Source: an uncultured Candidatus Saccharibacteria bacterium (GTDB lineage Bacteria; Patescibacteriota; Minisyncoccia; Phycocordibacterales; DATDWN01). Taken from it: DNA of 64,000 nucleotides. Made by a program: the position numbers and the translations under genes. Below the pieces are notes generated by a model that made no database searches, was not told where the DNA came from, and saw nothing but the letters and a program-made list of their open reading frames with translations. The stretch is from positions 2,052 to 66,051 of the forward strand of contig CAYJEE010000001.1 in assembly GCA_964369145.1 (NCBI GenBank), given 5' to 3'. This document shows positions 12,270 to 33,115 of this stretch, in pieces (position 1 is the stretch's first letter; each line of letters starts with the position of its first letter).

Positions 12270-12311
12270 GACTTTGAAATATTACATTAATTATAGTATA
12301 GTGGTGCACAT

Positions 12312-12542: not shown

Positions 12543-12663
12543 AACTTCCACATTTGGCCAATCTCATCGGCTAAAATCTAGGAACGGTCCTCAACGTACG
12601 ACGTGTACGTCTCCGGTCCCTTCCCAGATTTTATCCGCGACCTTGTCTCAAATCTGAAAGTTT
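12543..12663 (+). repeat. about 120-nt conserved structured intergenic element, copy 1
   Basis: about 85% identical to 32984-33115; contains the acgtac-loop-gtacgt hairpin; stem changes are compensatory between copies. Confidence 0.6.
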
Positions 12664-12763
12664 ATAAATCTCTAGAAAAACGTATGTTTTAAGCTCTGAT
12701 AAAATACCACTCTTGAACCGAGTGATTTTTTATATCCGAATGTGCTATCCACAGCAAATTTTG

Positions 12764-12795
12764 TTGACGGTGAACGTGTGTTCACCTATGATAAT
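12764..12795 (+). promoter_or_regulatory. sigma70-like promoter (TTGACG-17-TATGAT) with Cheo-like LexA box GGTGAACGTGTGTTCACC in the spacer
   Basis: GAAC-N4-GTTC palindrome at 12769-12786 matches the CGAACRNRYGTTYC core 12/14. Confidence 0.55.
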
Positions 12796-12829
12796 GATAT
12801 ACAAGAAACGCATAATAATTATTAAAACC

Positions 12830-13039
12830 ATGAGTAAACAACATTTTGAAAAAGCATTACGAGACGAACTTGAAGTATTAAATGAGACGATTGATCGAAA
12901 GATTATCAAAGGTCTTTCGTACGCAGCTGAAGCTCGTCGTCACAAAACGATTCTTTCTCAAATACTCGAGATACGACGTCGAGAGACACGGTCTGGTTGG
13001 TTTTCTCGCTCATTTGGGTTTACTTCATTTATATTCTAA
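12830..13039 (+). CDS. small helical protein (69 aa) with hydrophobic C-terminus, translationally coupled to lexA (TAATG overlap)
   Basis: ATG at 12830; its stop TAA overlaps the lexA ATG at 13039. Confidence 0.4.
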   Translation: MSKQHFEKALRDELEVLNETIDRKIIKGLSYAAEARRHKTILSQILEIRRRETRSGWFSRSFGFTSFIF

Positions 13040-13602
13040 TGAATTCATACAAAGATAAAATTTTTGCTTTTTACGGTCGGCATAAACGGATGCCAAACTA
13101 TCAAGAAATCATGGATCTTGTTGGTTTCAAATCCAAGAATGCAGTCTACAAACTCATCAACAAACTCATCGATGAGGGTGTAGTGACCAAAGATGCAAAA
13201 GGTAAGCTTGCCCCGACAAAAGCTTTCGATGAAATACCTCTCTTGGGTCTCGTCGAAGCGGGGTTTCCGACTACAGCTGAAGAAGAAAAACTTGAAACAT
13301 TGTCGCTCGACAACTATCTCATCAAACACAAAGAGTCTACATACCTTTTGGAAGTCAAAGGTGACTCGATGATCGACGAAGGGATTAAAGAAGGTGACCT
13401 TGTTATCGTGGAGCGCCGAGGCGATGCAAAAGAAGGGGATATTGTGATTGCAGAAGTCGATGGTGGATGGACGATGAAATACTACAAGAAAAAAGGTAAT
13501 CAAATATACCTCATGCCCGCCAACAAAAACTACAAACCCATCTATCCAGAATACGATCTCAAGATTGCAGCAATTGTGAAGGGGGTAATACGGAAGTATT
13601 AA
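13039..13602 (+). CDS. lexA: LexA-like repressor (wHTH + S24 peptidase)
   Basis: VKGDSM Ser nucleophile and downstream Lys (TMKYYKKKG); N-terminal wHTH IMDLVGFKSKNAVYKLINKLIDEGVV. Confidence 0.8.
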   Translation: MNSYKDKIFAFYGRHKRMPNYQEIMDLVGFKSKNAVYKLINKLIDEGVVTKDAKGKLAPTKAFDEIPLLGLVEAGFPTTAEEEKLETLSLDNYLIKHKESTYLLEVKGDSMIDEGIKEGDLVIVERRGDAKEGDIVIAEVDGGWTMKYYKKKGNQIYLMPANKNYKPIYPEYDLKIAAIVKGVIRKY

Positions 13603-13678
13603 AAGCATTATGCAAAAAATGCATATTACAAAGCCAAAGGGACTCCTTGCGGAGCCCTTAAGCGATACATTTATAGCA

Positions 13679-13758
13679 ACTAGTTCCCAAATGGAACTAG
13701 TTGTTCTGTCATTAAAACCAGATATGTGCATTTTAACTATCCGGAAATTCCGGATAGT
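13679..13758. promoter_or_regulatory. two adjacent perfect 25-bp palindromes aactaGTTCCcaaatGGAACtagtt and aactaTCCGGaaattCCGGAtagtt
   Basis: identical outer arms, different inner 5-bp stems, 5-nt loops; 55 bp apart downstream of lexA. Confidence 0.4.
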
Positions 13759-13920
13759 TAAAGAATAAACAAGACAACCCTCCTTTCGGAAGATTGCCCT
13801 TGGATTGTAGTACCCTTACAGTTATTAAAAACCATAAGACTTACTTAGTATAAATGATTTTTTTATGTTTGCCCATTAAAGGGCGAGGCCGAAGCCACTT
13901 ATAAGACAAGTATATCAAAC

Positions 13921-13970
13921 TATGTAAAAAGTTAAAACCCGCCACGAAGCAATTTCTTGCTTCGGGCGGG
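13921..13970 (-). terminator. hairpin cccgcc-a-cgaagcaa...ttgcttcg-ggcggg + T-rich tail on minus strand
   Basis: 14-bp stem; ends the 13987-14244 minus gene. Confidence 0.6.
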
Positions 13971-13986
13971 TATCGGAAATGAACAA

Positions 13987-14244
13987 TCAGGTCTGAATTG
14001 GAGAGAATCCAATCTTTCTCTTTGCGGGTTTTATTAACTTGCTTAGATGAGCTCTTATGTCCGTAAAGGGAGAGTCGAGGGCGAAGTCGGCAAATTCCGT
14101 GAATTGCTCGATATTCAATCCATATTCCCTCGCTCCGTCCTCAAGCCATGTATGAAGTTTCTTGGAATCTTCTGGGGGTTTACTCGTCCATACTACTCGC
14201 CGAGCAATCGCAAGGGCAATCTTATCACGTTCTTCTTCTGTCAT
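13987..14244 (-). CDS. small hypothetical protein (85 aa)
   Basis: ORF with terminator. Confidence 0.4.
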   Translation of the reverse strand: MTEEERDKIALAIARRVVWTSKPPEDSKKLHTWLEDGAREYGLNIEQFTEFADFALDSPFTDIRAHLSKLIKPAKRKIGFSPIQT

Positions 14245-14329
14245 TTTTCACCTTATAATATAAGAACATATTTAAACATAAATAGCAATAGCTTTAAAAA
14301 AACTATTTTTTATGCAATAATGTTTTTCT

Positions 14330-15427
14330 ATGTCACTTTCTATCGGAATTGTGGGGTTGCCGAATGTCGGGAAATCGACGCTTTTTAATGCGTTGACTAA
14401 AAAGTCTGTGCCCGCGGAAAACTATCCGTTTTGTACGATCGACCCATCTGTGGGGGTAGTACCAGTGCCTGATGAGAGACTCTACAAGCTTGCTGATTTT
14501 TCTAAAACCCAAAAAACATTGCCTGCGGTTGTGGAATTTGTGGATATTGCAGGTCTCGTAAAGGGGGCTTCGACTGGAGAAGGATTGGGAAATAAATTTT
14601 TGCAGAATATCCGAGAGGTAGACGCGATCCTTCAGGTGGTGCGTATTTTTGAGGATGTAAATGTGATTCATGTGCACAATGAAGTGAACCCTCTGTCTGA
14701 TATTGAAGTGATCAACCTCGAACTCGTGCTTGCAGACCAGGAGACTGTCGCAAAGCGTATTTCAAATGTACAAAAAGATGTTAAAAAAGGTGATAAGGAA
14801 GCAATCTTTGAAGCAGAAGTGCTCGAACGAGCAAAAGCACAGCTTGAGCTTGGAAAACTTCTCAACCAGCTCGAACTCACAGAAAAAGAAGCGCTTGCGC
14901 TCAAAGGTCTTCACTTGCTGACCATGAAGCCAATCATGTATGGGCTCAACAAAAAAGCGGGGAATAAAAACCTCGATGAAATGAATGATGAGCGATACAA
15001 AAAACTTATTGCATTTTTCGAAGAACAAAAAGCACAGTATGTGATTATCGATGCGGGTATTGAACATGAACTCAAAGATTTGGAGGGAGACGACAAAGAG
15101 CTTTTCAGAACTGAGCTTGGTGGAAAAACTGATGGTATCGATGAACTGATCAAAGCAGGCTACGCTCTTTTGGATTTGATTACCTACTTCACAACCGGAG
15201 AAAAAGAAACTCGTGCATGGACTATTAAAAAAGGCTGGACTGCGCCGCTCGCAGGTACTGCAATCCACACTGACTTTAAAGACAAGTTTATCAGAGCTGA
15301 AGTAGTCTTTTGGAAAGATTTGCTTGACTCAGGCTCATATGGAGCTGCTCGTGAAAAAGGTCTTGTTCGTACTGAAGGGAAAGAATATATTGTGAAAGAC
15401 GGTGATGTGATTGAGTTCCGTATCTAG
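14330..15427 (+). CDS. ychF: ribosome-binding ATPase YchF (Obg-family GTPase + TGS domain)
   Basis: GIVGLPNVGKSTLFNALT P-loop; C-terminal TGS. Confidence 0.9.
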   Translation: MSLSIGIVGLPNVGKSTLFNALTKKSVPAENYPFCTIDPSVGVVPVPDERLYKLADFSKTQKTLPAVVEFVDIAGLVKGASTGEGLGNKFLQNIREVDAILQVVRIFEDVNVIHVHNEVNPLSDIEVINLELVLADQETVAKRISNVQKDVKKGDKEAIFEAEVLERAKAQLELGKLLNQLELTEKEALALKGLHLLTMKPIMYGLNKKAGNKNLDEMNDERYKKLIAFFEEQKAQYVIIDAGIEHELKDLEGDDKELFRTELGGKTDGIDELIKAGYALLDLITYFTTGEKETRAWTIKKGWTAPLAGTAIHTDFKDKFIRAEVVFWKDLLDSGSYGAAREKGLVRTEGKEYIVKDGDVIEFRI

Positions 15428-15473
15428 CTGGAAAGTGTGGTATAATAGGTTAGTTACTCATTAATATCACTCT

Positions 15474-16400
15474 ATGGAACCAAACACACAACCACGTTCT
15501 CACGCGAAAGATGTTTTCTTGAATCTCGCTTCAATGGTTACGCTATACGCATCTGCAGCTGCATTGCTTAATCTTTTGTTTTCAATAATTAATAAAGTAT
15601 ATCCACAGACATTGGGATATTACTATTCACCGTCAATTAGTCTACCTGTCGCAACACTTATTATTGTATTTCCGCTCTACATCCTCTTTATGTGGCTTAT
15701 TGAAAAGGATCTTGCGAGCTCAATCGAAGGTCGGATGTCCGGTATTCGAAAATGGCTCATCTATATCACTCTCTTTGTTTCAGGAGGATTGATTGTGGGG
15801 GATTTGGTGACAGTTCTTTATTATTTCCTCGATGGTCAAGATATCACTGCGGGATTTTTGCTTAAAATCTTGAGTATTATTGTAGTGGCTGGTGCAGTGT
15901 TTGGATACTACATCACTGATGCTCGAAATAAACTAACATCTACAATGAGAAAAAGTGCAACGATTGTATCTGTACTTTTTGCTCTGGCGGCAATTATTGT
16001 TGGCTTTTCAGTTATTGGAAGTCCTCAGTCACAGCGACTCATGAAATACGATCAGCAGAAATTCTCTGAGTTACAGATGCTTTCAGGTCAGGTGCGTGAG
16101 TACTATCAGAAATCAAATACTCTACCTCAAACTCTCACTGAGCTTGCTCAAGGTTTCTCATATCCTCTTGCTACAGTAGATTCTCAGTCGGGTACATCAT
16201 ATGTGTACAAGATTATTAATGCAAATACATTTGAGCTTTGTTCGACATTCAATTTCGATGCTGATATGTCGGTGACACGACCCACATACTATTATTCCGA
16301 AGATCCACTCAATACGTCAGTGTGGAATACATACAAAGCAGGAGAATACTGCTTTACACAAACTGTTTCAAATAATCCAATACAAAAACCAACAAATTAG
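15474..16400 (+). CDS. polytopic membrane protein with C-terminal soluble domain
   Basis: 5-6 TM then a Cys-containing tail. Confidence 0.45.
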   Translation: MEPNTQPRSHAKDVFLNLASMVTLYASAAALLNLLFSIINKVYPQTLGYYYSPSISLPVATLIIVFPLYILFMWLIEKDLASSIEGRMSGIRKWLIYITLFVSGGLIVGDLVTVLYYFLDGQDITAGFLLKILSIIVVAGAVFGYYITDARNKLTSTMRKSATIVSVLFALAAIIVGFSVIGSPQSQRLMKYDQQKFSELQMLSGQVREYYQKSNTLPQTLTELAQGFSYPLATVDSQSGTSYVYKIINANTFELCSTFNFDADMSVTRPTYYYSEDPLNTSVWNTYKAGEYCFTQTVSNNPIQKPTN

Positions 16401-16475
16401 AACGATTAAAAACACCTCGACATGCATCGAGGTGTTTTTGCAAAATGTATTTTTCTGTTGTACTATATTATCACT

Positions 16476-19079
16476 ATGAAGCGATACAATCACACCGCAA
16501 TTGAGAAAAAATGGCAGAAAGAATGGAAAAAGAAAAAAGTGTATCGTACGGAAAGTGACTCTAAGAAGAAAAAAGAATACGTGCTTGATATGTTCCCGTA
16601 TCCTTCGGGAGCAGGGCTCCATGTAGGGCATCCAAAGGGGTATATCGGATCAGATGTGTATGCTCGTATGAAGCGCATGCAGGGTTTCAATGTGCTCCAT
16701 CCGATGGGATACGACGCATTTGGTCTCCCTGCTGAACAATACGCAATCGCACACAAGATTCATCCTCGCAAAGCGGTACTTGAAAATGTAAAAACATTTG
16801 AGAGTCAACTTTCTATTATTGGTCTTTCATATGATTGGGACAGAAAAGTAAATACAACAGACCCTGAATACTACCGATGGACTCAGTGGATTTTCTTACA
16901 GATCTACAATTCATGGTATGACGTATCAAAAAACAAAGCACAGTCGATTGAACGTTTGATTAAACAATTTAAAAAAGAAGGAAATGCCAATGTGAATGCT
17001 GTGTGTGATGAACATACTCCAGTATTTACTGCTGTAGAATGGAACATAAAAAGTGCAAAAGAACAGCAGGATATTCTCATGAAATATCGGCTTGCATATG
17101 AGGGGTATGCTGAGGTGAATTGGTGTCCAGAGCTCGGTACAGTGCTTGCAAACGACGAAGTGGTAGATGGTCCTGATGGAAAACCTGTTTCAGAACGAGG
17201 GGGATATCCGGTAGAGAAAAAGCAGATGCGTCAGTGGTTTATGCGGATCACCGCGTATGCAGAGAGACTCCTTTCAGGACTCGATACGATCAACTGGTCT
17301 GATAGTGTAAAAGAAATCCAGAAAAATTGGATTGGGAAGTCAGAGGGGGCGGAGATCAAATTTCAAATTTCAAATTCTAAATTTCAAAATAATTTAGGAG
17401 AAATAGCTGTGTTTACAACACGAGCGGACACACTTTTCGGCGCGACATATATTGTGCTTGCACCCGAACATCCACTCGTCGGAAAACTTTCTTCTCATAT
17501 TGAAAATATCGGAGAGGTAACAGAATACAAAGCTACAGTTGCGAACAAACCGATTGAACTTCGTACAGACGGTAGCAAAGAAAAAACTGGAATAGAACTC
17601 AAAGGTATATGTGCAACAAACCCGGCTACAGGTGAACAGATTCCTGTGTGGATTGCAGACTACGTGCTCGCTTCATATGGTACGGGGGCAGTGATGGCAG
17701 TGCCAGCACACGATGATCGGGATTTTGAATTTGCACAAAAATATAATTTGCCAATCATATCGGTCATTGATTCACAGAATAACATTCTGGAAAAAGCATG
17801 CACTGAAGAAGGTATCCTCCATAATTGTGGAGAATTTTCTGGTATGACCAGTGTGCATGCAAAAAAAGCGATAACAGAAAAAGTCGGAGGAAAAATTGTT
17901 ACGAAGTATAAAATGCGCAATGCGATTTTTGCTCGTCAGCGATATTGGGGCGAGCCGATACCATTGTGGACAGATGCAGATGGAATTATTCATTCTGTGG
18001 ATGAAAAGAAACTCCCGCTCACACTTCCAAACGTAACATCGTATGAACCGACAGGTACCGGCGAGTCTCCACTTGCGAGTGTACCCCTCTGGACTAAAAA
18101 AGGATTTGAGACCAATACAATGCCAGGATGGGCAGGGTCTTCATGGTACTTTTTGCGCTACATGGATCCTAAAAATAAAAAAGAAATTGCATCGAAAAAA
18201 GCACTTTCATACTGGGGGCAAGTCGATATGTATGTGGGAGGTGCAGAGCATGCGACAGGGCACCTCTTGTATGCACGATTCTGGAATAAATTCCTGAAAG
18301 ATATCGGTATTGTAAAACATGAAGAGCCGTTTAAAACACTTCGCAATCAAGGTATGATTGGTGGCGCTGATGGGCGAAAAATGTCAAAGCGCTGGGGTAA
18401 TGTGGTAAATCCTGATGATGTGGTGAAGACCTATGGGGCAGATACACTCCGTGTGTATGAGATGTTCATGGGTCCATTTGAAGCGGGTCTCCCATGGAAT
18501 ACCGAAAATATTATTGGTTCACGAAGATTTGTGGAACGAGTATGGAGACTGGGCGAGAAAATCAAAAATCAAACATCAAAAATTGCACATACAGAAGAAA
18601 ATAAAAAAGTAGAAACCGTTATCCATAAGACAATACAAAAAGTCACAAACGATATTCAGAATTTTGCGTTTAATACTGCAATATCAAGTCTGATGATTGC
18701 ACTCAATGAACTAGAAAAAAACACTACAGAGACGCAGGTGTACGTACAGAGAAAAGATTTTGAACTATTTCTAAAATTGCTCCATCCATTTGCTCCACAC
18801 GTTACCGAAGAGATATGGAAAGAGTTGGGAAATAAGACGACTTTGGTAAAAGAGATGTGGCCAAAAGCTGACGTGAAGAAAATCAAAGAAACACAGGTAA
18901 CTATTGCGGTCCAGATCAATGGAAAAACACGAGGAGAAGCTATAATCGGGGTAGATAGTGAAGAAAAAGATGTGCTTTTGTTGGTCTATAAAAACCAGGA
19001 TATCACTAAATGGATTGGGGATAAAGAGCTTAAAAAAGTGATTTATGTCAAAAATAGGTTGATAAATATAGTTATTTAA
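16476..19079 (+). CDS. leuS: leucyl-tRNA synthetase
   Basis: HVGHPKGYIGSDVYARMKR (HIGH region), KMSKRWGN (KMSKS); start moved to the MKRYNHTAIEKKW Met. Confidence 0.9.
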   Translation: MKRYNHTAIEKKWQKEWKKKKVYRTESDSKKKKEYVLDMFPYPSGAGLHVGHPKGYIGSDVYARMKRMQGFNVLHPMGYDAFGLPAEQYAIAHKIHPRKAVLENVKTFESQLSIIGLSYDWDRKVNTTDPEYYRWTQWIFLQIYNSWYDVSKNKAQSIERLIKQFKKEGNANVNAVCDEHTPVFTAVEWNIKSAKEQQDILMKYRLAYEGYAEVNWCPELGTVLANDEVVDGPDGKPVSERGGYPVEKKQMRQWFMRITAYAERLLSGLDTINWSDSVKEIQKNWIGKSEGAEIKFQISNSKFQNNLGEIAVFTTRADTLFGATYIVLAPEHPLVGKLSSHIENIGEVTEYKATVANKPIELRTDGSKEKTGIELKGICATNPATGEQIPVWIADYVLASYGTGAVMAVPAHDDRDFEFAQKYNLPIISVIDSQNNILEKACTEEGILHNCGEFSGMTSVHAKKAITEKVGGKIVTKYKMRNAIFARQRYWGEPIPLWTDADGIIHSVDEKKLPLTLPNVTSYEPTGTGESPLASVPLWTKKGFETNTMPGWAGSSWYFLRYMDPKNKKEIASKKALSYWGQVDMYVGGAEHATGHLLYARFWNKFLKDIGIVKHEEPFKTLRNQGMIGGADGRKMSKRWGNVVNPDDVVKTYGADTLRVYEMFMGPFEAGLPWNTENIIGSRRFVERVWRLGEKIKNQTSKIAHTEENKKVETVIHKTIQKVTNDIQNFAFNTAISSLMIALNELEKNTTETQVYVQRKDFELFLKLLHPFAPHVTEEIWKELGNKTTLVKEMWPKADVKKIKETQVTIAVQINGKTRGEAIIGVDSEEKDVLLLVYKNQDITKWIGDKELKKVIYVKNRLINIVI

Positions 19080-19178
19080 GGTGTGGTGTAATTTGCTTGA
19101 CGTTTGCCTCTAAAAATGATACAAATAGAGTACTCTATACCACTTTTTAACCACATTATTTACTTTAAACATACGTTT

Positions 19179-20216
19179 ATGAGCGAAAAAACAATTATTA
19201 CATTCAAACCAAAGCAAGTTTCAAAGCGCCTTATCGGTGTACTTTCTCCTCGTGCGCAGGATGTGATTATTGGACGTTATGGACTTGGTGCTGATACCAA
19301 GCGTATGACTCTCGAAGCTATCGGAAAAAAGTACAAAATCACCCGAGAGCGAGTGCGACAAATCGAAAACTACTCTATTGCAAACATTCGTAAGTCAAAA
19401 GAGTATGAGACAGAGAAAGTGGCTTTTGGTGAACTCAAAACTATCGTCAAAGTACTTGGTGGAATGGTCTCTGAAGAAGATTTGCTCAAACATGTGTCAA
19501 AAGACAAAAGTACACAAAATCACGTACACTTCCTTCTCGTAGTAGGTGAAGAGTTTACAAAAGAAAAAGAGGATCCAGAGTTTAAACACCGATGGCATGT
19601 AGACAAAGATTTGTCTAAAAAGATTCACGAATCACTTCGAAAACTCTATGAAAACATGGAAGATGATCAGATTCTTCCAGAATCTCAAATGATCGAAGCG
19701 TTTCTCGAACACCTCAAAGATGTTGCGACTGAATACAAGAACGAAGAAATCCTCCGACGATGGCTTTCAATTTCAAAAACAATCAATAAAAATCCACTGG
19801 GTGAATGGGGTAAAGCAGATTCTCCAAACATCAACACAAAAGGTATGCGAGACTATGCATTTCTCGTGATCCGACGACATGGCTCACCAATTCACTTCCG
19901 TGAAGTAGCAAAACTTATCGGTGAACTCTTTGGTAAAAAAGCTCACGTCGCTACAACTCACAACGAACTCATCAAAGATCCACGGTTTGTACTCGTCGGA
20001 CGAGGACTCTACGCACTTTCTGAATGGGGTTATATGTCAGGTGTTGTCAAAGACGTGATCAAAGGTGTGCTCGAGAAGAATGGTCCACTTACAAAAGAAA
20101 AGATTATCGAGAAGGTGATGAAAGAACGATATGTGAAAGAAAACACTATCATGGTAAATCTCCAGAACACAAAACTTTTTAAGAAGACTAAGGACGGAAA
20201 GTATTCAATCGCTTAA
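19179..20216 (+). CDS. protein with N-terminal sigma-70 region-4-like HTH and long C-terminal extension
   Basis: LSPRAQDVIIGRYGL...LEAIGKKYKITRERVRQIE resembles sigma region 4.2. Confidence 0.45.
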   Translation: MSEKTIITFKPKQVSKRLIGVLSPRAQDVIIGRYGLGADTKRMTLEAIGKKYKITRERVRQIENYSIANIRKSKEYETEKVAFGELKTIVKVLGGMVSEEDLLKHVSKDKSTQNHVHFLLVVGEEFTKEKEDPEFKHRWHVDKDLSKKIHESLRKLYENMEDDQILPESQMIEAFLEHLKDVATEYKNEEILRRWLSISKTINKNPLGEWGKADSPNINTKGMRDYAFLVIRRHGSPIHFREVAKLIGELFGKKAHVATTHNELIKDPRFVLVGRGLYALSEWGYMSGVVKDVIKGVLEKNGPLTKEKIIEKVMKERYVKENTIMVNLQNTKLFKKTKDGKYSIA

Positions 20217-20424
20217 AATTGTAAAATTACTTCATCTACTCGACTTTATTTTCTTAAGAGTGTAGCGACTTAGAAAATAAGAAGTACCCTTGTGGTATTG
20301 TTGCGATTCAAATTTGTTCACTCACCGTACGAGAAGTACGGCTCGTTTACAAACTTTTCTGCTTCGCGTATCTAAGGTAATTCTGAGAATTTTATTAAGT
20401 TGACTATATCTAATGATAAAATAA

Positions 20425-20460
20425 AAAGAAATATCGCCTTGGCGGTATTTCTTTTTATTT
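20425..20460 (+). terminator. hairpin gaaatatcgcc-ttg-gcggtatttc + T tract
   Basis: intrinsic terminator shape. Confidence 0.55.
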
Positions 20461-20473
20461 GTATACTTAATAC

Positions 20474-21709: not shown

Positions 21710-21712
21710 TCT

Positions 21713-22732
21713 ATGGACGAAATACATACACAAACAGAAGAACAAAAAGAGACTCTTTTACTCGAAGAGCCGTCTTTTTTTCATACGTACAAACGAGTCT
21801 TTTTGTCAGCACTTATCGCTTTGTGTGCATTGAGTGTGGTGGTGTATGTATCCGTGTGGAGAACTCCAGGAGATTTCCCTGTGCACACTGTCGTTACAGT
21901 AAAAACAGGTGAGAGTTTGGAAGTTGTCACCCAAAAATTCACAACACTGCGGTTGATCCGTTCACCGTTTGTGTTTCGAAGTTTGGTGATTTTACTTGGT
22001 GGAGAAAAAAAGGTAACTGCGGGAGATTATTTGTTGACTGACCGGGAAAGCCCGCTTACGTTGGCGTGGCGTATTATGGAAGGTAAGTTTGGTATGGAAC
22101 CCATAAAAGTGACAATACCTGAAGGGCTAAATAATGAAGAAATTTCTGCTATTCTTGGTAAAAAATTAGTAGTATTTGATAAGGTATCTTTTGAAAGAGA
22201 AGCAGTCAAAAGAGAAGGGTATTTGTTTCCTGATACATACTTTTTTCCACCTACAGCAAAACCAGAAGAAGTGATTGGTCGTATGGAGGATAACTTTACA
22301 GAAAAAATAAAAAGTCTCGAAGCTGATATTCAAGCATTTGGTAAGTCGTTGTCTGATGTGGTGATTATGGCATCGATTCTTGAAGGTGAAGCGAAAGATA
22401 CTGAGTCGAGACGTATCGTAGCGGGGATTTTGTGGAAAAGAATTTCAATCGGTATGCCGCTTCAGGTGGATGCAACGTTTAAATATATTAATGGAAAGGA
22501 TAGTTCTACTCTTACGCTTGAAGATTTAAAGACGGATTCTGCATACAATACATATACAAATAGAGGGCTTCCACCAACACCGATCAATAATCCAGGAATA
22601 GATGCGCTTTTGGCTGCAGTAAATCCAATCAAAACAGATTATTTGTATTTTCTTACAGGTAAAGATGGGAAAATGTATTATGCAAAAACTTTTGAACAGC
22701 ATAAAGTTAATAAGCAGAAGTATTTGAAGTAA
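21713..22732 (+). CDS. mltG: MltG/YceG-like endolytic transglycosylase (paralog 2)
   Basis: ...NTYTNRGLPPTPINNPGIDALLAAVNP...; same architecture as 11457-12269. Confidence 0.75.
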   Translation: MDEIHTQTEEQKETLLLEEPSFFHTYKRVFLSALIALCALSVVVYVSVWRTPGDFPVHTVVTVKTGESLEVVTQKFTTLRLIRSPFVFRSLVILLGGEKKVTAGDYLLTDRESPLTLAWRIMEGKFGMEPIKVTIPEGLNNEEISAILGKKLVVFDKVSFEREAVKREGYLFPDTYFFPPTAKPEEVIGRMEDNFTEKIKSLEADIQAFGKSLSDVVIMASILEGEAKDTESRRIVAGILWKRISIGMPLQVDATFKYINGKDSSTLTLEDLKTDSAYNTYTNRGLPPTPINNPGIDALLAAVNPIKTDYLYFLTGKDGKMYYAKTFEQHKVNKQKYLK

Positions 22733-22881
22733 ATTTTCAAACCCTTACATATGTTTTTTGGAGCACGCATAAATTTCTGCTGAAATTTTGCTCAGTCTCG
22801 GCTACCCGCCTTGCGAAGTCTCCAAAAAATATATGTAAGGGTTTTCTGGCTACTTACTATAAGTATGCTATAAATAAAGTA

Positions 22882-23991: not shown

Positions 23992-24015
23992 TTGAAAAAG
24001 AAGGAGGTTCACTAA

Positions 24016-24204
24016 ATGATAACCGGACGAGAAAGAAAGTTTCGAAGAAAGATAAAAAAACTTTCCAAGGAAGAAGAGCGAGCTCGAGATGAACGTTTTC
24101 GTGAAGCGGTTGCTCGACTGGAAGCTGATCCAGAATACATTGCATTACAGGCTGCTTGCCGAAGAGCTGATGAAAGAGGGCCTAATGTTAAATGTACCGT
24201 TTAG
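24016..24204 (+). CDS. small basic protein (62 aa)
   Basis: Arg/Lys-rich ORF with its own terminator at 24212-24250. Confidence 0.4.
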   Translation: MITGRERKFRRKIKKLSKEEERARDERFREAVARLEADPEYIALQAACRRADERGPNVKCTV

Positions 24205-24211
24205 GTGCAGA

Positions 24212-24250
24212 AGGAGGGTGCGTTGTACACGCCCCTCTTTTGTTTTTTCG
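24212..24250 (+). terminator. hairpin gagggtgcg..cgcccctc + ttttgttttttc
   Basis: intrinsic terminator shape. Confidence 0.55.
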
Positions 24251-24271
24251 TAAAAATTTTGTGATAATACA

Positions 24272-25099: not shown

Positions 25100-25111
25100 A
25101 TTATAAAAGAA

Positions 25112-25139
25112 AAAAGCGCAGCCGGTAGGCTGCGCTTTT
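25112..25139. terminator. perfect bidirectional terminator aaaagcgcagcc-ggta-ggctgcgctttt
   Basis: between convergent genes. Confidence 0.7.
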
Positions 25140-25159
25140 GATTTGTATCCTTACTTTGG

Positions 25160-26899: not shown

Positions 26900-27012
26900 A
26901 CGGTTCTCCTGAAGTAAGTGATGTCAAAAAACTAGAATTAGTCCGCCTGTATTATAGCACACTATATATCAATTTGTCAAGTATTTTTATTGTATAATTT
27001 TGGCATAATGGG

Positions 27013-27657
27013 GTGATGAAATCAGCTCAAAAAAAATCGAAAAAAGCCCCAAGGAAAGCCACATCTGGAGACATCAAAAATATCACAAACTTTCTCTTTG
27101 AGGTGGGGATTTTGACCAAGACTCCTCGGAGCGGACTGCACTTTCTAGGTACTGGAGAGCAGTCGGTGGCAGAGCATGTCAATAGAGTGTGCTTTATCGG
27201 CTATATGCTTGCACATCTCGATGGTGAAGCGGACCTTTCAAAAGTCCTCCAGATGTGTCTTTTTCACGACATTACGGAAACACGAATTTCTGACCTCAAC
27301 TATATTCATCAGAAATATGTCGTACGAAAAGAACATGAGGCGATGGTAGATATTTCAAATTCGATTCCATTTGGTGAAAATGTTTTCGCTACACTTGCCG
27401 AGTATGAAAAAAGAGAAAGCAAGGAGTCTTTGATTGTAAAAGATTCTGATAATCTCGAGTGGATCCTTACGCTCAAAGAAGAATTTGATAAAGGAAATGA
27501 GCGAGCATTGAGTTGGATTCTGCCCGCGATCAAAAGACTTAAAACTCCGCATGCTCAAAGTATCGCTAAAGAAATTATGAAGACGGATGCAAATGATTGG
27601 TGGTTTAGTAAGAAAGAGCAAAAAGATTCATGGTGGGTTAATAGAGGAAAAAAGTAA
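27013..27657 (+). CDS. HD-domain phosphohydrolase (YfbR-like 5'-deoxynucleotidase family)
   Basis: H...HD...D motif (LFHDITETRISDLN). Confidence 0.7.
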   Translation: MMKSAQKKSKKAPRKATSGDIKNITNFLFEVGILTKTPRSGLHFLGTGEQSVAEHVNRVCFIGYMLAHLDGEADLSKVLQMCLFHDITETRISDLNYIHQKYVVRKEHEAMVDISNSIPFGENVFATLAEYEKRESKESLIVKDSDNLEWILTLKEEFDKGNERALSWILPAIKRLKTPHAQSIAKEIMKTDANDWWFSKKEQKDSWWVNRGKK

Positions 27658-27662
27658 TATAT

Positions 27663-29477
27663 ATGAAAAAAACTAAAGAATATTTAAATTTTTTAAACGA
27701 CACATACCACAAGCTTCATAAAACATACGAAGATTTTTTTTGGCTTTCGTACATGGGTGATCACTCGATAGACGCAAAAAAAGATGAGGCGCTGGCTTCA
27801 ATCGATGCTTTTAAGGCAAATAAGGAGCATCTTGAAACTGTAGAAAAATTAATAAAGGAAACAAAGGGTCCGCTTAAGGCGCGTCTTGCGCAGTGGCAGA
27901 GATTTTTTAATCAATATCACACTCCTGCTGAGGCGGTGCCTTTAAAAAAGGAAATTGATGAACTTGAAACATTGATCAATAAAAAACATGGAGAAAGAAC
28001 GGAAGGGTATGTAGATCCGTATACAAAAAAGTTTGTAGAGGTTTCTTCTGTTCAGATGGGATCAATGATACGAACAAATCCTGATGAGAAAATCCGCAAA
28101 GCGTGTTTTGAGGGAAAAGAAAAATTGGCTACAGACTCGTTGAGCGAGTATATAAAACTAGTTACCCTTCGCAATCAGTATGCACGGATTCTTGGTTATA
28201 CAGATTTTTATGATTTCAAAGTCAAAAAAGAAGATGGAATGACAAAGAAAGAATTGTTTGGAATTTTTGATTCTATTTACGATAAAACAAAATACGCACG
28301 AAAAGATATTATAAAACTTGAAAAGACAATGCCAGGGCTTCGTAAGCCGTGGAATTTTGGCTATATGCTCGCTGGGGATTTTACAAAGGAAGAGGATCCG
28401 TATTTCCAGTTTGATGAAGCATTGATGCGATGGGGGAGATCATTTGCAGCAATGGGGATTGATTTTAAAGAAGGGAAGCTACAGCTCGATCTGTTGGATA
28501 GAAAAGGGAAGTGGAACAACGGCTTTTGTCATTGGCCTGACTTGGTCAAATATGAAGGTACAAAAAGAATACCAGGAAGCTCAAACTTTACCTGTACTGT
28601 GGTTATGGGACAGGTTGGCTCAGGAGAAATGGGGTACAACACTCTTTTTCATGAAGGAGGTCACGCTGCACACTTGCTAAATTCTGTTCAAAAAGATGTG
28701 TGTCTCAATCATGAGTACCCTCCGATGTCGAATGCTCTCGCTGAGACTCATAGTATGTTTCTCGATACTATGTATGGAGGTATTGAGTGGCAGACTCGAT
28801 ATGCAAAAAATGCAAAAGGTGAAGCGTACCCTTTCGAACTTTTTGAGAAAATGGTCCGAAAGCTTCATGTACTACGTCCACTTGATTTAAATGGGATCAT
28901 TGCTGTGTCTGTATTCGAAAAAGAAATCTACGAGACTAAAAAACTAACTCCAGAAAAAGTGATCAGTATTGCACATAAAAATTTCAAAAAATATTTTGAG
29001 CGATCAGAAGACTCACTTATGCTTCTCAATGTGCCTCATATTTACGGATGGGATTCTTCCGGCTCATATCATGGGTATGGACTTGCAACTCTCGCGCTCT
29101 CACAATGGAGAAAATATTTCTTTAAAAAGTACGGGTATATTGTCGACAATCCAAAAGTGGGGAAAGAAATGGAAAAGGTATGGAAACTTGGGTCGTTAAA
29201 AACATTTAATGAGTTTGTAAAAATTATTACCGGTGAAAAACTAAAACCAACTGCGTATTTGGAACATATGACTGCTTCTATTCCACAAATACTAAAGGGC
29301 GCACAAGAAAAAATTGCTCGTCTTAAAAAGGTAAAGGAGTATACAAAAAAAGTAGATTTGAAGGCTTCGATTTCAATGGTTCACGGTAAAGATGAGATTT
29401 GTAATAACAAGAAAAGTTTTGAAGATATGGCAGAGAAATATAAAGCGTGGCTCAAAACCCAATCTATTCAAAAATAG
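27663..29477 (+). CDS. pepF: M3-family oligoendopeptidase (PepF-like)
   Basis: HEGGH zinc motif (LFHEGGHAAHLL) and size. Confidence 0.75.
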   Translation: MKKTKEYLNFLNDTYHKLHKTYEDFFWLSYMGDHSIDAKKDEALASIDAFKANKEHLETVEKLIKETKGPLKARLAQWQRFFNQYHTPAEAVPLKKEIDELETLINKKHGERTEGYVDPYTKKFVEVSSVQMGSMIRTNPDEKIRKACFEGKEKLATDSLSEYIKLVTLRNQYARILGYTDFYDFKVKKEDGMTKKELFGIFDSIYDKTKYARKDIIKLEKTMPGLRKPWNFGYMLAGDFTKEEDPYFQFDEALMRWGRSFAAMGIDFKEGKLQLDLLDRKGKWNNGFCHWPDLVKYEGTKRIPGSSNFTCTVVMGQVGSGEMGYNTLFHEGGHAAHLLNSVQKDVCLNHEYPPMSNALAETHSMFLDTMYGGIEWQTRYAKNAKGEAYPFELFEKMVRKLHVLRPLDLNGIIAVSVFEKEIYETKKLTPEKVISIAHKNFKKYFERSEDSLMLLNVPHIYGWDSSGSYHGYGLATLALSQWRKYFFKKYGYIVDNPKVGKEMEKVWKLGSLKTFNEFVKIITGEKLKPTAYLEHMTASIPQILKGAQEKIARLKKVKEYTKKVDLKASISMVHGKDEICNNKKSFEDMAEKYKAWLKTQSIQK

Positions 29478-29567
29478 TTGAAAACTTATTTCCGGAAAAA
29501 AGAAAAAGTAGAAACAAAAATCCGCTTCTCCAGGGCGGATTTTGTCCGTCTGAAGAAGCGGTTTGGT

Positions 29568-30149
29568 TTATTCACCTTTGAAGTAGGTGAAGCGAAGACC
29601 GAGCAGGGCATTGGTGCGCCCTTTCTCGTCCCAGGTAATAGTGGGACGTATAGAAGGTGTCCACCTGCCGATTGGGTTTAGACGATATTCTGCCCGCACG
29701 CCGTGACCAAGGAAGGCCTGGCTGTGGGTGCCGACAGACCAACGTTCGCTGAGTTTTACGTCAGTCAGGGTAAGATACCAGTAACCAGTCACCCCTTTGT
29801 CTTCGTAGATGACGAAGACGTAGCACCGACCCTTATTGGCGTACAGGTATGACCCAATACGCATTTTGCTGGTGGTCTGCTCAACTCCGCCACCGACTCC
29901 GACTTGGAGCCAGCTTGTGGGTTTGGCATAACCACCCACGTAGGCTTGACGATAGTTTGTTCCTATCTGCCCCCAGCCAAAGAGGCCAGTGTGTTTGGTG
30001 AGGCTTTGTTGTGCCCACACCGTATTTGTCTGGCTGTCTGCCCCTGCACTTTTGAAGGTGCTGTACGATTCAGTAAAAATGAATGTCTCAGCGTTTGTTT
30101 TTTGGCAAAAAAACAAACAAAAAACGAACAAGAATATGAAGGTTCGCAT
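29568..30149 (-). CDS. secreted beta-barrel-like protein (193 aa)
   Basis: signal peptide; amphipathic beta pattern ...LLGLRFTYF. Confidence 0.4.
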   Translation of the reverse strand: MRTFIFLFVFCLFFCQKTNAETFIFTESYSTFKSAGADSQTNTVWAQQSLTKHTGLFGWGQIGTNYRQAYVGGYAKPTSWLQVGVGGGVEQTTSKMRIGSYLYANKGRCYVFVIYEDKGVTGYWYLTLTDVKLSERWSVGTHSQAFLGHGVRAEYRLNPIGRWTPSIRPTITWDEKGRTNALLGLRFTYFKGE

Positions 30150-30233
30150 GGGTTCTCCGTGTATTATAATAGCATATATAATGTGTACTTGTCAAGTTTT
30201 TGGTTCATCTAAACTATATGGTAAACTAAAGTC

Positions 30234-30656
30234 ATGTGGATACTTTATGCACTTATCTCAGCGCTTTTTGCAGGCATGGTGGCGGTCTTTGGAAAGCTTG
30301 GGCTTAAGAATATTGATTCGACTCTTGCGACTACAGTGCGCTCATTTATCATGGCGGGGTTTCTCGGGGTGACCGCTCTTGCACTGAAAAAGTTTCAAGG
30401 TTTTTCACTTTCAACATTTACGGGGCGTGAGTGGGCGTATATTGCACTCTCTGGTGTAGCGGGAGCACTCTCATGGCTCTTTTACTTCGTGGCACTCAAA
30501 AATGGAACTGCGGTGACTGTCTCTGCGATCGACCGATTGAGTATTGTCTTTGTGCTCGTATTTGCAGCACTCTTTTTAGGCGAAGGGTTTACCTTGTGGA
30601 AAGTGGTGGGTGTGCTCTGTATTGCACTTGGTGCTTTCTTGACTACTTTGAAATAG
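30234..30656 (+). CDS. EamA-like (DMT superfamily) small transporter
   Basis: 4-TM EamA-type pattern. Confidence 0.55.
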   Translation: MWILYALISALFAGMVAVFGKLGLKNIDSTLATTVRSFIMAGFLGVTALALKKFQGFSLSTFTGREWAYIALSGVAGALSWLFYFVALKNGTAVTVSAIDRLSIVFVLVFAALFLGEGFTLWKVVGVLCIALGAFLTTLK

Positions 30657-30966
30657 GTTGTATGATGTATATAGATGTTTTATCGAGCCAGGAAGTATCT
30701 AGAGGCTGCTCTACTGTGGGTAGCTTTTATTCTTGTTTTGAGCTTTGCATTTTCGGTGATTGTGCCTAATTTTTTACGTGCTAAGCTTGAAGCTAGCGGG
30801 AAAAACTTCAGGGTCCGCTTTGAGCGGATTTGCAAGAGGATCATTCGGTACCTCGAGTCCGAGCCGTTCGCGTATCGGATGTAGGTTGTAGTGTTAGCGC
30901 ATCTCGTGAATAACGAGGTGCGCTTTAAATTTCCTATGCTACTATTAATTATGAAAGGAGCTCTTT

Positions 30967-31149
30967 GTGGCAAATACCAATGAAGAAATTGAAAAAGAGG
31001 TTGAAAGGCCTGAACCTCTTACCTCTCAGGAAATCGACCAGGTGATTGCTAACAGTGCACATCTCTGGCGTACTCGCAAACCATTAAAGAAAGAAAGTGG
31101 TATTCCAAGGAAACCAAGGGACGTTCGCGCTTTTGTGCATGATTTCTGA
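30967..31149 (+). CDS. small hypothetical protein (60 aa)
   Basis: ORF followed by a strong terminator. Confidence 0.3.
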   Translation: MANTNEEIEKEVERPEPLTSQEIDQVIANSAHLWRTRKPLKKESGIPRKPRDVRAFVHDF

Positions 31150-31175
31150 GGGGCGGTTCGCCGCCCTTTTTTTTA
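31148..31175 (+). terminator. gaggggcggttcgccgccc + tttttttt
   Basis: intrinsic terminator. Confidence 0.7.
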
Positions 31176-31201
31176 TACTCAAAATATGGCATATTGTGTA
31201 T

Positions 31202-32983
31202 ATGAAATCATCAGAAATTCGTGCGAGATTTTTAAACTTTTTTAAGGAACGAGGTCATGCAGTCTTGCCGTCGGCTTCACTCCTGCCTGAAAATGACCCT
31301 TCAGTGCTTTTCAACACTGCTGGTATGCAACCGCTTGTGCCGTATCTCCTTGGAGAAAAGCATCCTCTCGGAACACGCCTCGCAAATATCCAAAAATGTG
31401 TCCGCACCGGAGATATTGACGAGATTGGCGACAACACTCACGCTACATTTTTTGAAATGATGGGTAACTGGTCTCTCGGCGACTATTTCAAAAAAGATGC
31501 AATACAGTGGAGCTTTGAGCTACTTACTAACAAAGAAATTGGTTTTGGTCTTGACCCACAGCGTCTCTACGTGACTTGCTTTGAAGGAAACGAGGACGCA
31601 CCAAAAGACACTGAATCTGCTGAAATCTGGAAAGGTATTTTTGATGCTACAGGAGTAACTGGCGAGCGTATCTACTTTCTGCCTGCAAATAAGAACTGGT
31701 GGAGTGCAGGGGAGAATGGCCCATGTGGTCCAGACACTGAAATGTTTTACGACCTGACCGGTACATACACTTCTGGTATGACAAAAGAAGCGTACCTCGC
31801 AGCTGACGACAAACAAGAAGTGGTAGAAATCTGGAATGATGTGTTTATGGAATACCTCAAGAAAGATGGGAAGGTGGTAGGGAAGCTCGCATCACAAAAC
31901 GTGGATACAGGCTCTGGTTTTGAGCGTGTGACAGCAGTACTTCAAGGTAAGAACAATATTTTCGATACGGATATTTTTGCCCCTCTAATGGAAGCTATTG
32001 GGGTGTATGGTATTACAGACTTACGAGCTAAACGTATTATTGCTGATCATATCCGAACTTCAGTGTTTATGATTGCAGACGGTGTTTTACCGTCGAATAC
32101 GGATCAAGGGTATATTCTTAGACGCTTATTGCGAAGAGCAATTTTTCAAGCTTACAATTTTCATCGAGGTCATAACACCAATTTATACATACTCACAGAT
32201 GTGGTGACTGATATGTATAAGGATTCTTACCCGGACTTAAAACAGAATGAACAAAAGATTAGAGATGTAATTAAAGACGAGGAAGAGAAATTTAAAAAGA
32301 CTATAGAACAAGGTACAAAGGAATTTGAGAAAATTTCTAAACAAGATATTTCAGGAAAAGATGCTTTTATTCTTTTTTCTACGTTTGGTTTTCCATTTGA
32401 TCTCACTAAAGAACTCGCTCTTGCGAAGGGTCTCTCTGTTGACGAAGCTACGTTTAAAGAAGAATTTGCAAAACACCAGGATCTTTCACGAGCAGGAAGT
32501 GAACAAAAATTTAAAGGAGGACTCGCTGGTACCGGAGAAGTAGAAACTCGGTACCATACTGCCACTCATTTGCTCCATCAGGCTCTTCGAGATGTGCTCG
32601 GTCCTACAGTAAGCCAAAAAGGCTCAAATATCACCGCAGAGCGACTACGCTTTGACTTCACACACCCACAAAAGATGACTGATGAAGAAAAGAAAAAAGT
32701 GGAAGATATTGTCAATGGAAAAATACAGGCAAAACTTCCGATGCAAAAAGTAGTGATGAAAAAAGAAGATGCAGAAAAGACCGGCGCGCTTCACTTCTTT
32801 GGCGACAAATACGGAGATGAGGTGTCTGTCTACTTTATCGGAGACTCGATCGACTCTGCATACTCAAAAGAATTTTGTGGAGGACCTCATGTGACAAATG
32901 TGGGAGAACTCGGAACTTTCAAAATATCGAAAGAAGAAGCTGTATCCGCCGGTGTCCGACGTATTAAGGCGGTACTGACATAG
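31202..32983 (+). CDS. alaS: alanyl-tRNA synthetase, short form (catalytic + editing domains, no C-Ala domain)
   Basis: class II core; editing HxxxH (HTATHLLHQALRDVLG) and CxxxH (CGGPHV); about 593 aa. Confidence 0.85.
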   Translation: MKSSEIRARFLNFFKERGHAVLPSASLLPENDPSVLFNTAGMQPLVPYLLGEKHPLGTRLANIQKCVRTGDIDEIGDNTHATFFEMMGNWSLGDYFKKDAIQWSFELLTNKEIGFGLDPQRLYVTCFEGNEDAPKDTESAEIWKGIFDATGVTGERIYFLPANKNWWSAGENGPCGPDTEMFYDLTGTYTSGMTKEAYLAADDKQEVVEIWNDVFMEYLKKDGKVVGKLASQNVDTGSGFERVTAVLQGKNNIFDTDIFAPLMEAIGVYGITDLRAKRIIADHIRTSVFMIADGVLPSNTDQGYILRRLLRRAIFQAYNFHRGHNTNLYILTDVVTDMYKDSYPDLKQNEQKIRDVIKDEEEKFKKTIEQGTKEFEKISKQDISGKDAFILFSTFGFPFDLTKELALAKGLSVDEATFKEEFAKHQDLSRAGSEQKFKGGLAGTGEVETRYHTATHLLHQALRDVLGPTVSQKGSNITAERLRFDFTHPQKMTDEEKKKVEDIVNGKIQAKLPMQKVVMKKEDAEKTGALHFFGDKYGDEVSVYFIGDSIDSAYSKEFCGGPHVTNVGELGTFKISKEEAVSAGVRRIKAVLT

Positions 32984-33115
32984 AACTTCCATATTTGGCC
33001 AATCTCATCGACTAAAATTCAGAAATGGTCCTCAACGTACCATTAAGTACGTCTCCGGTCCCTTCCTGAATTTTATCCGCGACCTTGACTCAAATCTGAA
33101 AGTTTTAATAGTGCT
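32984..33115 (+). repeat. about 120-nt conserved structured intergenic element, copy 2
   Basis: see copy 1; directly after the alaS stop. Confidence 0.6.

Follow-up and report, generated by a model that had tools for sequence, protein, structure and literature searches.

Interspersed palindromic repeats of about 124 nt at open reading frame boundaries in Patescibacteria, with the stronger hairpin mostly on the strand antisense to the gene

The stretch of DNA considered here, 64,000 nt of contig CAYJEE010000001.1 from an uncultured Candidatus Saccharibacteria bacterium (assembly GCA_964369145.1, positions 2,052 to 66,051 of the forward strand; hereafter the window), carries three full copies and one decayed copy of a hairpin element of about 124 nt, all of them on the minus strand and behind stop codons. 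Copy A (12541-12664, minus strand, 132.7 bits with a covariance model of the family) is a full element of 124 nt with the minus-strand sequence 5'-TAAACTTTCAGATTTGAG...CCAAATGTGGAAGTTTT-3'. The final 2 nt of the TAA stop codon (12540-12542, plus strand) of a 76-aa open reading frame (ORF; 12312-12542, plus strand) belong to it as well; TAA recurs at 12665-12667, directly past the element, and a bidirectional intrinsic terminator, detected on both strands by a terminator scan and conserved in the related contig L015, lies downstream at 12706-12726. Copy B (32982-33106, minus strand, 133.6 bits) is likewise full-length and directly adjoins the alaS stop codon, TAG (32981-32983, plus strand); TAG recurs at 33109-33111, 2 nt past its end, which is itself overlapped by a TAA; the promoter region of the next plus-strand gene comes after it. 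Copy C (36673-36798, minus strand), also full-length, belongs to an A+T-rich subtype whose apical module differs, and occupies the intercistronic gap between rpsM and rpsK (stop codon 36672-36674, rpsK ATG at about 36818). Copy D (about 20260-20400, minus strand) is a decayed or partial relative that retains the apical module GAGCCGTAC-loop-GTACGGTGAG and sits in an insertion of about 190 nt between the stop codon at 20214-20216 and a terminator. The element is bounded by AAACTTTCAGATTTGAG and CCAAATNTGGAAGTT; its strand that folds better is here called the strong strand.

Copies A and B are identical in 108 of 125 aligned columns (about 86%), with 93% identity in the basal arms and 76% in the apical part. 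A conserved 16-mer and a conserved 29-mer each occur exactly twice in the window, where shuffled sequences lead one to expect 0.6 and 0.0 occurrences, and both copies fold far better than shuffled sequence (z = -5.4 on the plus strand and -8.7 to -9.3 on the minus strand). A first-pass annotation of this DNA had pointed to two similar, co-oriented stretches, each directly behind a plus-strand stop codon, and this is borne out (12541/12543-12664 and 32982/32984-33106, about 86% identity, starting on the last two bases of the TAA at 12540-12542 and of the TAG at 32981-32983), except that the second stretch had been drawn to 33115, about 9 nt beyond its true end at 33106. Copies C and D had been missed. 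Logan contig ERR4405439_407710 (L001), an independent assembly from the same organism that corresponds to window positions 11400-12575, breaks 33 nt into copy A, which is how a repeat behaves in short-read assembly. The source of the window was traced to a metagenome assembly of Patescibacteria (GCA_020049755.1; Logan ERR4405439/41).

Three further copies, on contigs L015, L005 and L002, were found by an exact-match scan of one genome per species, and three more, on L032, L038 and L041, by an exact-match scan of metagenomes. The copies on L015 and L005 belong to a metagenome-assembled genome (MAG) of Candidatus Zambryskiibacteriota, and the MAG of L002 is 81-86% identical to the window in DNA. 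Most other matches were discarded, those of the genome scan as chance matches in G+C-rich genomes and those of the metagenome scan as one unrelated coding sequence present in many contigs. A covariance model (R1) built from seven close copies found divergent members that had remained unseen by word searches, namely copy C in the window (36673-36798, 52.9 bits before its use in training), L041 5237-5360, L041 638-761, L005 4672-4792, L015 5159-5281 and L038 1047-1169. A broader model (R2), run over the window without filters, returned the three full copies (copy C with 76.9 bits) and one weak match, copy D, at 20280-20384 (22.4 bits, E = 0.009). Contigs of collinear relatives, retrieved via homologues of ribosomal protein S13, contributed copies on L047, L049 (two) and L050, and a further 113 kb or so of relatives' contigs held no copies, barring two short contigs that duplicate copy C.

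Altogether, 17 distinct full copies are present in about 155 kb of related sequence (3 in the window and 14 elsewhere), in addition to decayed ones; the first-pass annotation had granted that a family of two copies only would speak against its proposal, and the family is plainly larger than that. The copies are 121-126 nt long, have a G+C content of 26-51% and occur singly. Because the scans of the collections relied on exact words, these copy numbers are lower bounds; by extrapolation, the density is roughly 4-6 copies per 100 kb in carrier lineages and nil in other lineages. The host clade is Patescibacteria (the Candidate Phyla Radiation, CPR), including MAGs labelled as Zambryskiibacteria. 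The contig collinear with the window at 81-86% DNA identity (L002/L047, CAYRYA010000008.1) is labelled 'uncultured Candidatus Saccharibacteria', a label that looks doubtful because the other close relatives of the window are labelled Zambryskiibacteriota, Patescibacteria or Parcubacteria. Searches of known families gave no match: with Rfam at gathering thresholds over the whole window, only a tRNA-Ala was found, and at E <= 10 around copy A only chance-level matches of 13-17 bits; phage and plasmid collections and viral contigs held no match to the element, nor did E. coli (blastn in distant mode, 20,395 records from 5,426 complete genomes). In the literature on repeats, miniature inverted-repeat transposable elements (MITEs) or palindromes of CPR/Patescibacteria, no description of this element was found.

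Every copy forms a single long imperfect hairpin of about 50 pairs. In the basal module, as read on the strong strand, AAACUUUCAGAUUUGAG...CAAG-GU-CGCGG pairs with CCG-A-UGA-GA-UUGG...CCAAAUNUGGAAGUU, and within this module a G-A mismatch and a G-U are conserved and one A is bulged. The middle stem of about 13 pairs varies in sequence among subfamilies with its pairing maintained. A purine-rich internal loop (GA/GA, GGA/GA or GUA/GGA) rests on a pair that hardly varies (G-U in 14 copies and G-C in the other 3), and the apical helix of 5 bp, YRUAC/GUAYR, covaries (CGUAC/GUACG, CAUAC/GUAUG, UGUAC/GUACA) and carries a variable loop of 4-7 nt. The region below the apex is a tandem G-A or purine internal loop, which is preferred over a kink-turn; the kink-turn was rejected since its register moves the apical helix by 2 nt and breaks covarying pairs. 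One copy, L005a (L005 6587-6787), has an insertion of about 80 nt with three hairpins in place of the apical loop, and its orthologue L032a (L032 1392-1515) is without it.

Covariation was assessed on a MAFFT alignment of 13 copies, made independently of any model. In this alignment 86% of the cells are in standard pairs, both sides have changed in 32 of the 50 pairs, and a covariation score of 0.36 compares with 0.20 in shuffled alignments, none of 500 shuffles reaching the observed value; registers slid by 1-3 columns are paired in only 31-52%. In the 17 model-aligned copies, 88.6% of the cells are paired and 35 of the 50 pairs change on both sides. The covariation is strong, and the family is under selection for secondary structure. 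The first-pass annotation had already read the compensatory change in the outer stem (tctagg/cccaga versus ttcaga/tcctgaa) and the invariant ACGTAC/GTACGT apex with differing loops correctly, and its proposal of selection on secondary structure holds (32-35 of 50 pairs changed on both sides, 86-89% of cells paired); it was mistaken in the strand: the minus strand folds better than the one it had read, which has A-C mismatches at places where the minus strand pairs G with U.

The strand asymmetry was seen in several ways. The minimum free energy (MFE) of copy A is -58.3 kcal/mol on the minus strand versus -39.4 kcal/mol on the plus strand, that of copy B -53.0 versus -32.9 kcal/mol and that of copy C -43.3 versus -18.2 kcal/mol, so that the minus strand of copies A and B folds about 20 kcal/mol better than the plus strand. 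Calculated without use of an alignment, the MFE is better by 10-25 kcal/mol on the strong strand in 16 of the 17 copies, the sole exception being L005a, the carrier of the apical insertion, and the asymmetry persists under DNA energy parameters. RNAalifold gives -56.5 kcal/mol for the window minus strand versus -32.6 kcal/mol for the plus strand. In the alignment, 87 cells are G-U on the strong strand versus 11 A-C cells (G-U on the other strand), and 25 pair columns contain G-U versus 7 that contain A-C (binomial p = 0.002); the alignment used for the cell counts was fitted to the model and leans to the model's strand, a bias from which the energies and the MAFFT results are free. Cytosine deamination on the non-template strand, which is also the leading strand here, would yield G-U pairs on the mRNA strand. 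A mutational bias was rejected as the source of the asymmetry, since deamination predicts the opposite and several G-U pairs are conserved across subfamilies.

The position of the element is as regular as its structure. Of the 17 full copies, 13 directly adjoin a stop codon (gap 0-5 nt), with the strong strand running antisense to the gene that ends there; counted with orthologues once, they represent nine independent sites, all antisense (two-sided p of about 0.004). The genes concerned are the 76-aa ORF and its orthologue, alaS, rpsM (two genomes), an ATP-cone gene (two genomes), yceG, rpsG, a type-II/IV secretion ATPase-like gene, a 109-aa ORF and one further gene (two genomes). The decayed copy D has the same orientation, about 45 nt behind the stop of the gene at 19104-20216. 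The remaining four copies lie in 5' leaders, where they precede the start codons of clpP, dnaK, rpsL and one further ORF by 14-48 nt and have their strong strand in the sense orientation. At all 17 full copies (about 13 independent sites) the strong strand points with its 3' end towards the neighbouring ORF. Replication direction was considered as the cause of the orientation and rejected, in that L015 and L038 each bear opposite copies about 1 kb apart, each following its neighbour gene.

Terminators, where present, lie past the element, which therefore falls within the 3' untranslated region (UTR), and nearly all copies are bordered by a stop codon on one side and by a terminator or the following cistron on the other, and must therefore be co-transcribed with the upstream gene; copies C, L050a and L041c are intercistronic within one operon. 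Scans of the flanks of copies A, B and C revealed no promoter-like site upstream of the strong strand, the only minus-strand promoter match being a 9/12 site within copy C itself, and the terminator at 12706-12726 separates copy A from any source of minus-strand transcription on its right. With no separate promoter and with this terminator as a shield, the RNA that is certainly made at the stop-codon sites is therefore the weaker-folding strand (-31 to -39 kcal/mol). Candidate sigma-70 promoters within or beside the element (TTGAGA or TTGGCC-12-TAAAAT) were rejected because the spacer is too short. For the four leader copies, transcription in the strong orientation is probable, and the one on L049 has a promoter, TTGCAG-16-TATAAT, 40 nt upstream.

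These observations bear on two readings of the element as a transcript or a transcription signal in its own right. The copies could be independent small-RNA genes, each encoding a hairpin RNA of about 125 nt from its own promoter, for which the conserved and strongly covarying structure and the leader copies, including the one on L049 with its promoter, might be adduced; but at copies A, B and C the strong strand has neither a promoter upstream nor a terminator downstream, at 13 of the 17 copies its 3' end would run into the antisense of a coding region, copy A sits between a stop codon and the terminator of the same gene, and no Rfam family is matched even at E = 10. We consider this reading decidedly improbable, and the discrete small-RNA gene suggested by the first-pass annotation is unlikely in view of the missing promoter-like sites, the terminator that shields copy A and the position of copy C, which fills an intercistronic gap of a ribosomal-protein operon. 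It is less probable still, and in our view barely credible, that the elements are unusually long intrinsic terminators of the upstream genes. Their place directly behind stop codons and the layout of A run, hairpin and U run (AAAAC...GUUUU) on both strands would fit such a role, but a separate canonical terminator follows several copies, three copies are intercistronic within one operon and four are found in 5' leaders, the stem beside the U run is weak and mismatched on the mRNA strand, the terminator scan did not flag the elements, and close relatives manage without them at the same sites.

Comparison with relatives of 71-81% DNA identity to the window revealed gain and loss of the element at orthologous sites. 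The alaS site is filled in the window and empty in L047, L049, L050 and L045; L046 (6809-6925) retains an 11-nt element start, AACTTCCATAT, behind the alaS stop, joined to the downstream flank seen in the window, and this remnant is the deletion footprint of a palindrome. The rpsM-rpsK site is filled in the window and in L050 and empty in L046, L047 and L049, the ATP-cone site is filled in L047 and L049 and empty in the window (25100-25159), and the site at about 20.3 kb is filled in the window by the insertion of about 190 nt with the decayed copy and empty in L002, where 8 nt separate stop and terminator. Among these four filled/empty comparisons, the direction of change is settled for the L046 remnant alone, as a loss. 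In all four, TAA or TAG is found on both sides of the filled site and once at the empty site, a pattern that palindromic extension and A+T-rich flanks can mimic; with the same possibility of mimicry, about 10 of the 13 stop-codon copies have TAA or TAG within 0-2 nt on each side. This two-sided pattern is compatible with a 3-bp duplication, and the TAA pair around copy A (12540-12542 and 12665-12667) is a possible 3-bp target duplication of this kind.

Copies that stay in place are conserved. Copy A and its orthologue L015a (L015 6360-6482) are 93% identical, with the third codon positions of the flanking genes 51-65% identical to L015 and the spacer just past copy A unalignable with its L015 counterpart. 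In all four orthologous pairs the basal arms are 86-95% identical; in the adjacent genes the third codon positions are 51-67% identical and the first and second positions 83-98%. Resident copies change at about the low rate of first and second codon positions and are under purifying selection, which includes their locus-specific arms. The apical modules behave differently at two loci: between L047 780-903 and L049 668-792, and between copy C and L050 10381-10501, the basal arms are 86-91% identical and the apical modules 53-58%, and these modules resemble the apices of non-orthologous copies (70-79%), which suggests exchange of modules, or gene conversion, between copies.

Among known systems, the closest are short palindromic repeats of other phyla. 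The present element is 121-126 nt long, below the limit of about 400 bp for MITEs, non-coding, bounded by inverted repeats in that it is an imperfect palindrome over its whole length, dispersed (three full copies and one decayed in the 64-kb window), and variably present at orthologous sites (four comparisons and the 11-nt remnant). MITEs of less than 200 bp form long stem-loops, often lie at gene 3' ends, are co-transcribed and can affect mRNA stability (PMC3184786). ERIC sequences likewise occur in transcribed intergenic regions, often at gene 3' ends, have no known transposase, and have reported effects on mRNA stability (PMC3184786). The likeness to ERIC (also IRU, about 127 bp) extends to nearly equal size, a whole-length imperfect palindrome, dispersal, and a copy number that varies between related species. 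Internal insertions of the L005a kind also have a parallel, as Wilson and Sharp in 2006 are said to have described ERIC variants with internal insertions. The two differ in that they share no sequence similarity (5,426 complete E. coli genomes), belong to hosts of different phyla, and are flanked by TA in the case of ERIC and by TAA/TAG here; to our knowledge, strict abutment on stop codons with the strong hairpin on the non-mRNA strand has not been reported for ERIC.

The bcr1 repeats are transcribed, their distribution is not conserved between related strains, and compensatory base changes maintain their structure (PMC3184786). Like the present element, bcr1 (Bacillus cereus group, about 155 bp, 'group A') is an interspersed non-coding repeat that is transcribed and shows compensatory changes; unlike it, bcr1 is cruciform-like, with two independent stem-loops and 5-bp direct repeats, against one long hairpin and a possible 3-bp duplication here, and the two have no sequence relationship. 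The Correia elements (NEMIS) of Neisseria and other bacterial MITEs resemble it in size (100-160 bp), terminal inverted repeats, co-transcription, a long RNA stem-loop and presence or absence between strains (PMC3184786). In Correia elements, however, only the ends of about 26 bp pair and TA is duplicated, whereas the present element pairs and covaries over its whole length and does so in a strand-specific manner. REP and BIME sequences, which often carry a GTAG/CGTC tag and are associated with RAYT transposases, are extragenic palindromes in 3' UTRs and between cistrons, with a proposed role in mRNA stabilisation and effects near stop codons. The likeness to them is that of a palindrome in 3' UTRs and between cistrons. 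REPs are 20-40 nt long, G+C-rich and often clustered (PMC3733652); the present element has 124 nt and 26-51% G+C and occurs singly. Of the 'REP/MITE-like' label in the first-pass annotation, the MITE-like half can thus be kept as the best available category, and REP in the proper sense (20-40 nt, G+C-rich) does not apply. Intrinsic terminators have a G+C-rich stem with a U tract straight after it; the terminator scan did not pick out the elements, and several copies have a separate terminator downstream.

A comparison of another kind is with sites recombined as single-stranded DNA. The attC sites of integrons are imperfect palindromes of 57-141 nt at or near the upstream stop codon; the folded single strand is antisense, with conserved unpaired bases and a variable apex. 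As an analogy only, the present element shares the strand-specific fold and a folded strand antisense to the upstream gene, and could accordingly be a recombination or transposition site, attC-like or IS200/IS605-like, that is moved by a tyrosine recombinase or an HUH enzyme. Its asymmetry under DNA energy parameters, its start at the stop codon, its ends reading ..AAC and GTT.., its conserved unpaired bases and variable apical structure (up to an 80-nt expansion), and the want of a clear target duplication beyond the repeated triplet would all suit this idea. The details do not: the R''/R' consensus is not matched, as ends such as GTAAAAC or ATAGAAC with GTTTTAA, GTTTTAG or GTTTATA misfit RYYYAAC/GTTRRRY and only AAC/GTT agrees; copies are spaced 3-20 kb apart, follow housekeeping genes (alaS, rpsM, rpsG, yceG) and occur in both orientations on a contig, rather than forming a co-oriented cassette array; neither an integrase nor an HUH transposase such as TnpA was seen in the sequence examined, where the window ORFs were tested; IS200/IS605 elements share strand-specific structure but have two separate subterminal hairpins on one active strand and insert 3' of a fixed target of 4-5 nt, against one element-long hairpin here; and orientation follows the gene and not replication, opposite copies lying 1 kb apart in L015 and L038. 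A site of this type is therefore improbable.

The reading we favour, with a confidence of about one half, is that the copies make up a new, previously undescribed family of interspersed, whole-length palindromic repeats of about 124 nt, of the MITE-like kind represented by ERIC, Correia and bcr1 and co-transcribed in 3' UTRs. They are filed with these families because they are short, non-coding, dispersed, gained and lost, located in the transcribed 3' ends of genes, and folded into a long stem-loop with compensatory changes. In the mechanism that this reading proposes, the element would be spread in trans by some enzyme and land on TAA/TAG triplets, which would explain TAA/TAG on both flanks. 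The strong strand would be the form that is recognised single-stranded during propagation, as DNA or, in the few leader copies, as RNA. Right behind a stop codon, selection against the strong orientation would leave as tolerated only that in which the mRNA carries the weaker hairpin (about -31 to -39 kcal/mol), and in that orientation the element may serve as a 3' stem-loop for transcript stability or processing, a use that would account for the purifying selection on resident copies.

Several observations weigh against this reading of the family as MITE-like repeats. No transposase or autonomous partner with matching ends was found among the window ORFs tested and the loci examined; an IS30-like ORF 138 nt from L005a was considered as the mobilising transposase and rejected, as it shares no inverted repeats with the element and matched only by its HTH_38 domain, and a search for orphan element ends that could bound a larger autonomous element returned one weak orphan, L015 1314-1329. 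The TAA/TAG duplication is inseparable from palindromic extension (TAAAAC...GUUUUA, then A) and A+T-rich flanks. Purifying selection on locus-specific basal arms is not expected of a purely selfish repeat. Host use of the mRNA-strand hairpin predicts G-U pairs on that strand, and the substitutions favour the other strand 8:1. Finally, the better hairpin on the antisense strand, with its single-stranded stage, is left unaccounted for by this reading.

The main rival, to which we assign a rather low probability, is a cis-acting element that the host retains and that is read antisense to the gene, with the hairpin formed in antisense RNA or in template-strand DNA. It would mark ORF boundaries as a barrier, a terminator or a processing signal for incoming transcription, or as the binding site of a clade-specific protein, and the antisense RNA could originate from the downstream promoter firing divergently or from convergent genes that are read through. 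Substitutions keep the pairing on the antisense and not on the mRNA strand, purifying selection acts on the locus-specific arms of orthologous copies, all 17 full copies have the 3' end of their strong strand turned towards the ORF, the conserved G-U pairs and tandem G-A internal loops are of a kind recognised by proteins, and a short U run, e.g., GGAAGUUUUAC, follows many copies on that strand; both facts that are awkward for a selfish repeat, the selection on the arms and the pairing on the non-mRNA strand, would thus be explained. The evidence from transcription speaks against it, as copies A, B and C have no promoter-like site upstream of the strong strand, copy A is shielded by a bidirectional terminator, and the intercistronic copies C, L050a and L041c leave no space for an antisense promoter. 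Moreover, the U run is inconsistent and the stem base rich in A-U and G-U, which is why the elements are not flagged by the terminator scan; copies in the leaders of dnaK and clpP cannot act as strong terminators; and the patchy presence among close relatives speaks against an essential role. At its boldest, and with the same doubtful standing, this reading holds that the family is a clade-specific, host-kept 'ORF-boundary' signal whose functional form is the complement of the mRNA at 3' ends and the mRNA sense at a few leaders; read as antisense RNA, template-strand or single-stranded DNA by a Patescibacteria protein, it could be a polar barrier that has spread in the manner of a mobile element.

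Other hairpins and repeats are present in the window. A 150-nt hairpin with a branched interior of two hairpins (11306-11456, plus strand; MFE -66.9 kcal/mol on the plus strand versus -53.1 kcal/mol on the minus strand) abuts the yceG stop (gene at 11457-12269, minus strand). It was detected by neither R1 nor R2, and it stands at the site behind yceG that is held in L015 by a standard family member of 123 nt (L015b, 5159-5281), with which alignment is confined to the outermost arms; the hairpin may be a distant relative, of uncertain membership, and the site has undergone either in-place divergence with compensation or replacement of one element by another. A hairpin of about 120 nt at 43018-43142, after the dnaK stop (43002), folds better on the antisense strand (-49.4 versus -43.2 kcal/mol) and is a non-member by model score. 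A different element of 100 nt with perfect terminal inverted repeats of 21 bp (CCTTACATATGTTTTTTGGAG...) lies at 22743-22842, just past the stop of the gene at 21713-22732; it was not detected by the covariance models and is apparently absent from L002, the sequence of which is partly N-masked. At 5517-5616, a near-perfect palindrome of 100 nt (about -70 kcal/mol) consists of the 3' part of a tRNA-Ala(UGC) gene (5595-5668, minus strand), its terminator and an inverted partial tRNA 3' end, and it may be the attachment-site remnant of an integrated mobile element; an ORF for a NikA-like mobilisation protein is located at the start of the window (11-277, minus strand).

Some features of neighbouring genes were also recorded. 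Past copy A, a promoter-like TTGACG-17-TATGAT (12764-12792) upstream of the gene at 12830 overlaps a perfect palindrome, GGTGAACGTGTGTTCACC, which is likely an operator because promoter and palindrome are both conserved in L015. The alaS gene in front of copy B (31202-32983) is short: the Logan gene call has 593 aa (L042 4695-6476) and those of relatives 583-604 aa. Alanyl-tRNA synthetase has about 870 aa in most bacteria, and the enzyme encoded in the window seems to be without the C-terminal domain. The cumulative GC skew climbs to about 52 kb of the window and then drops, and gene orientation switches there too; the region around 52000 may be a replication terminus or origin, or show only a local effect.

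Patescibacteria (CPR) account for a large share of bacterial diversity and have tiny genomes with little non-coding DNA, and their non-coding elements are almost unstudied. The family described here displays two regularities beyond ordinary MITE biology, in that copies are placed precisely at stop codons and the mRNA strand is almost never the one with the strong hairpin. Even as a mobile repeat and nothing more, the element is of use as a marker of genome dynamics and accounts for assembly breaks in these MAGs. If it is used by the host, it would point to a new factor that recognises RNA or single-stranded DNA and would show how compact genomes delimit their transcription units. Were the ORF-boundary reading true, it would represent a new kind of bacterial regulatory or insulating element in very compact genomes.

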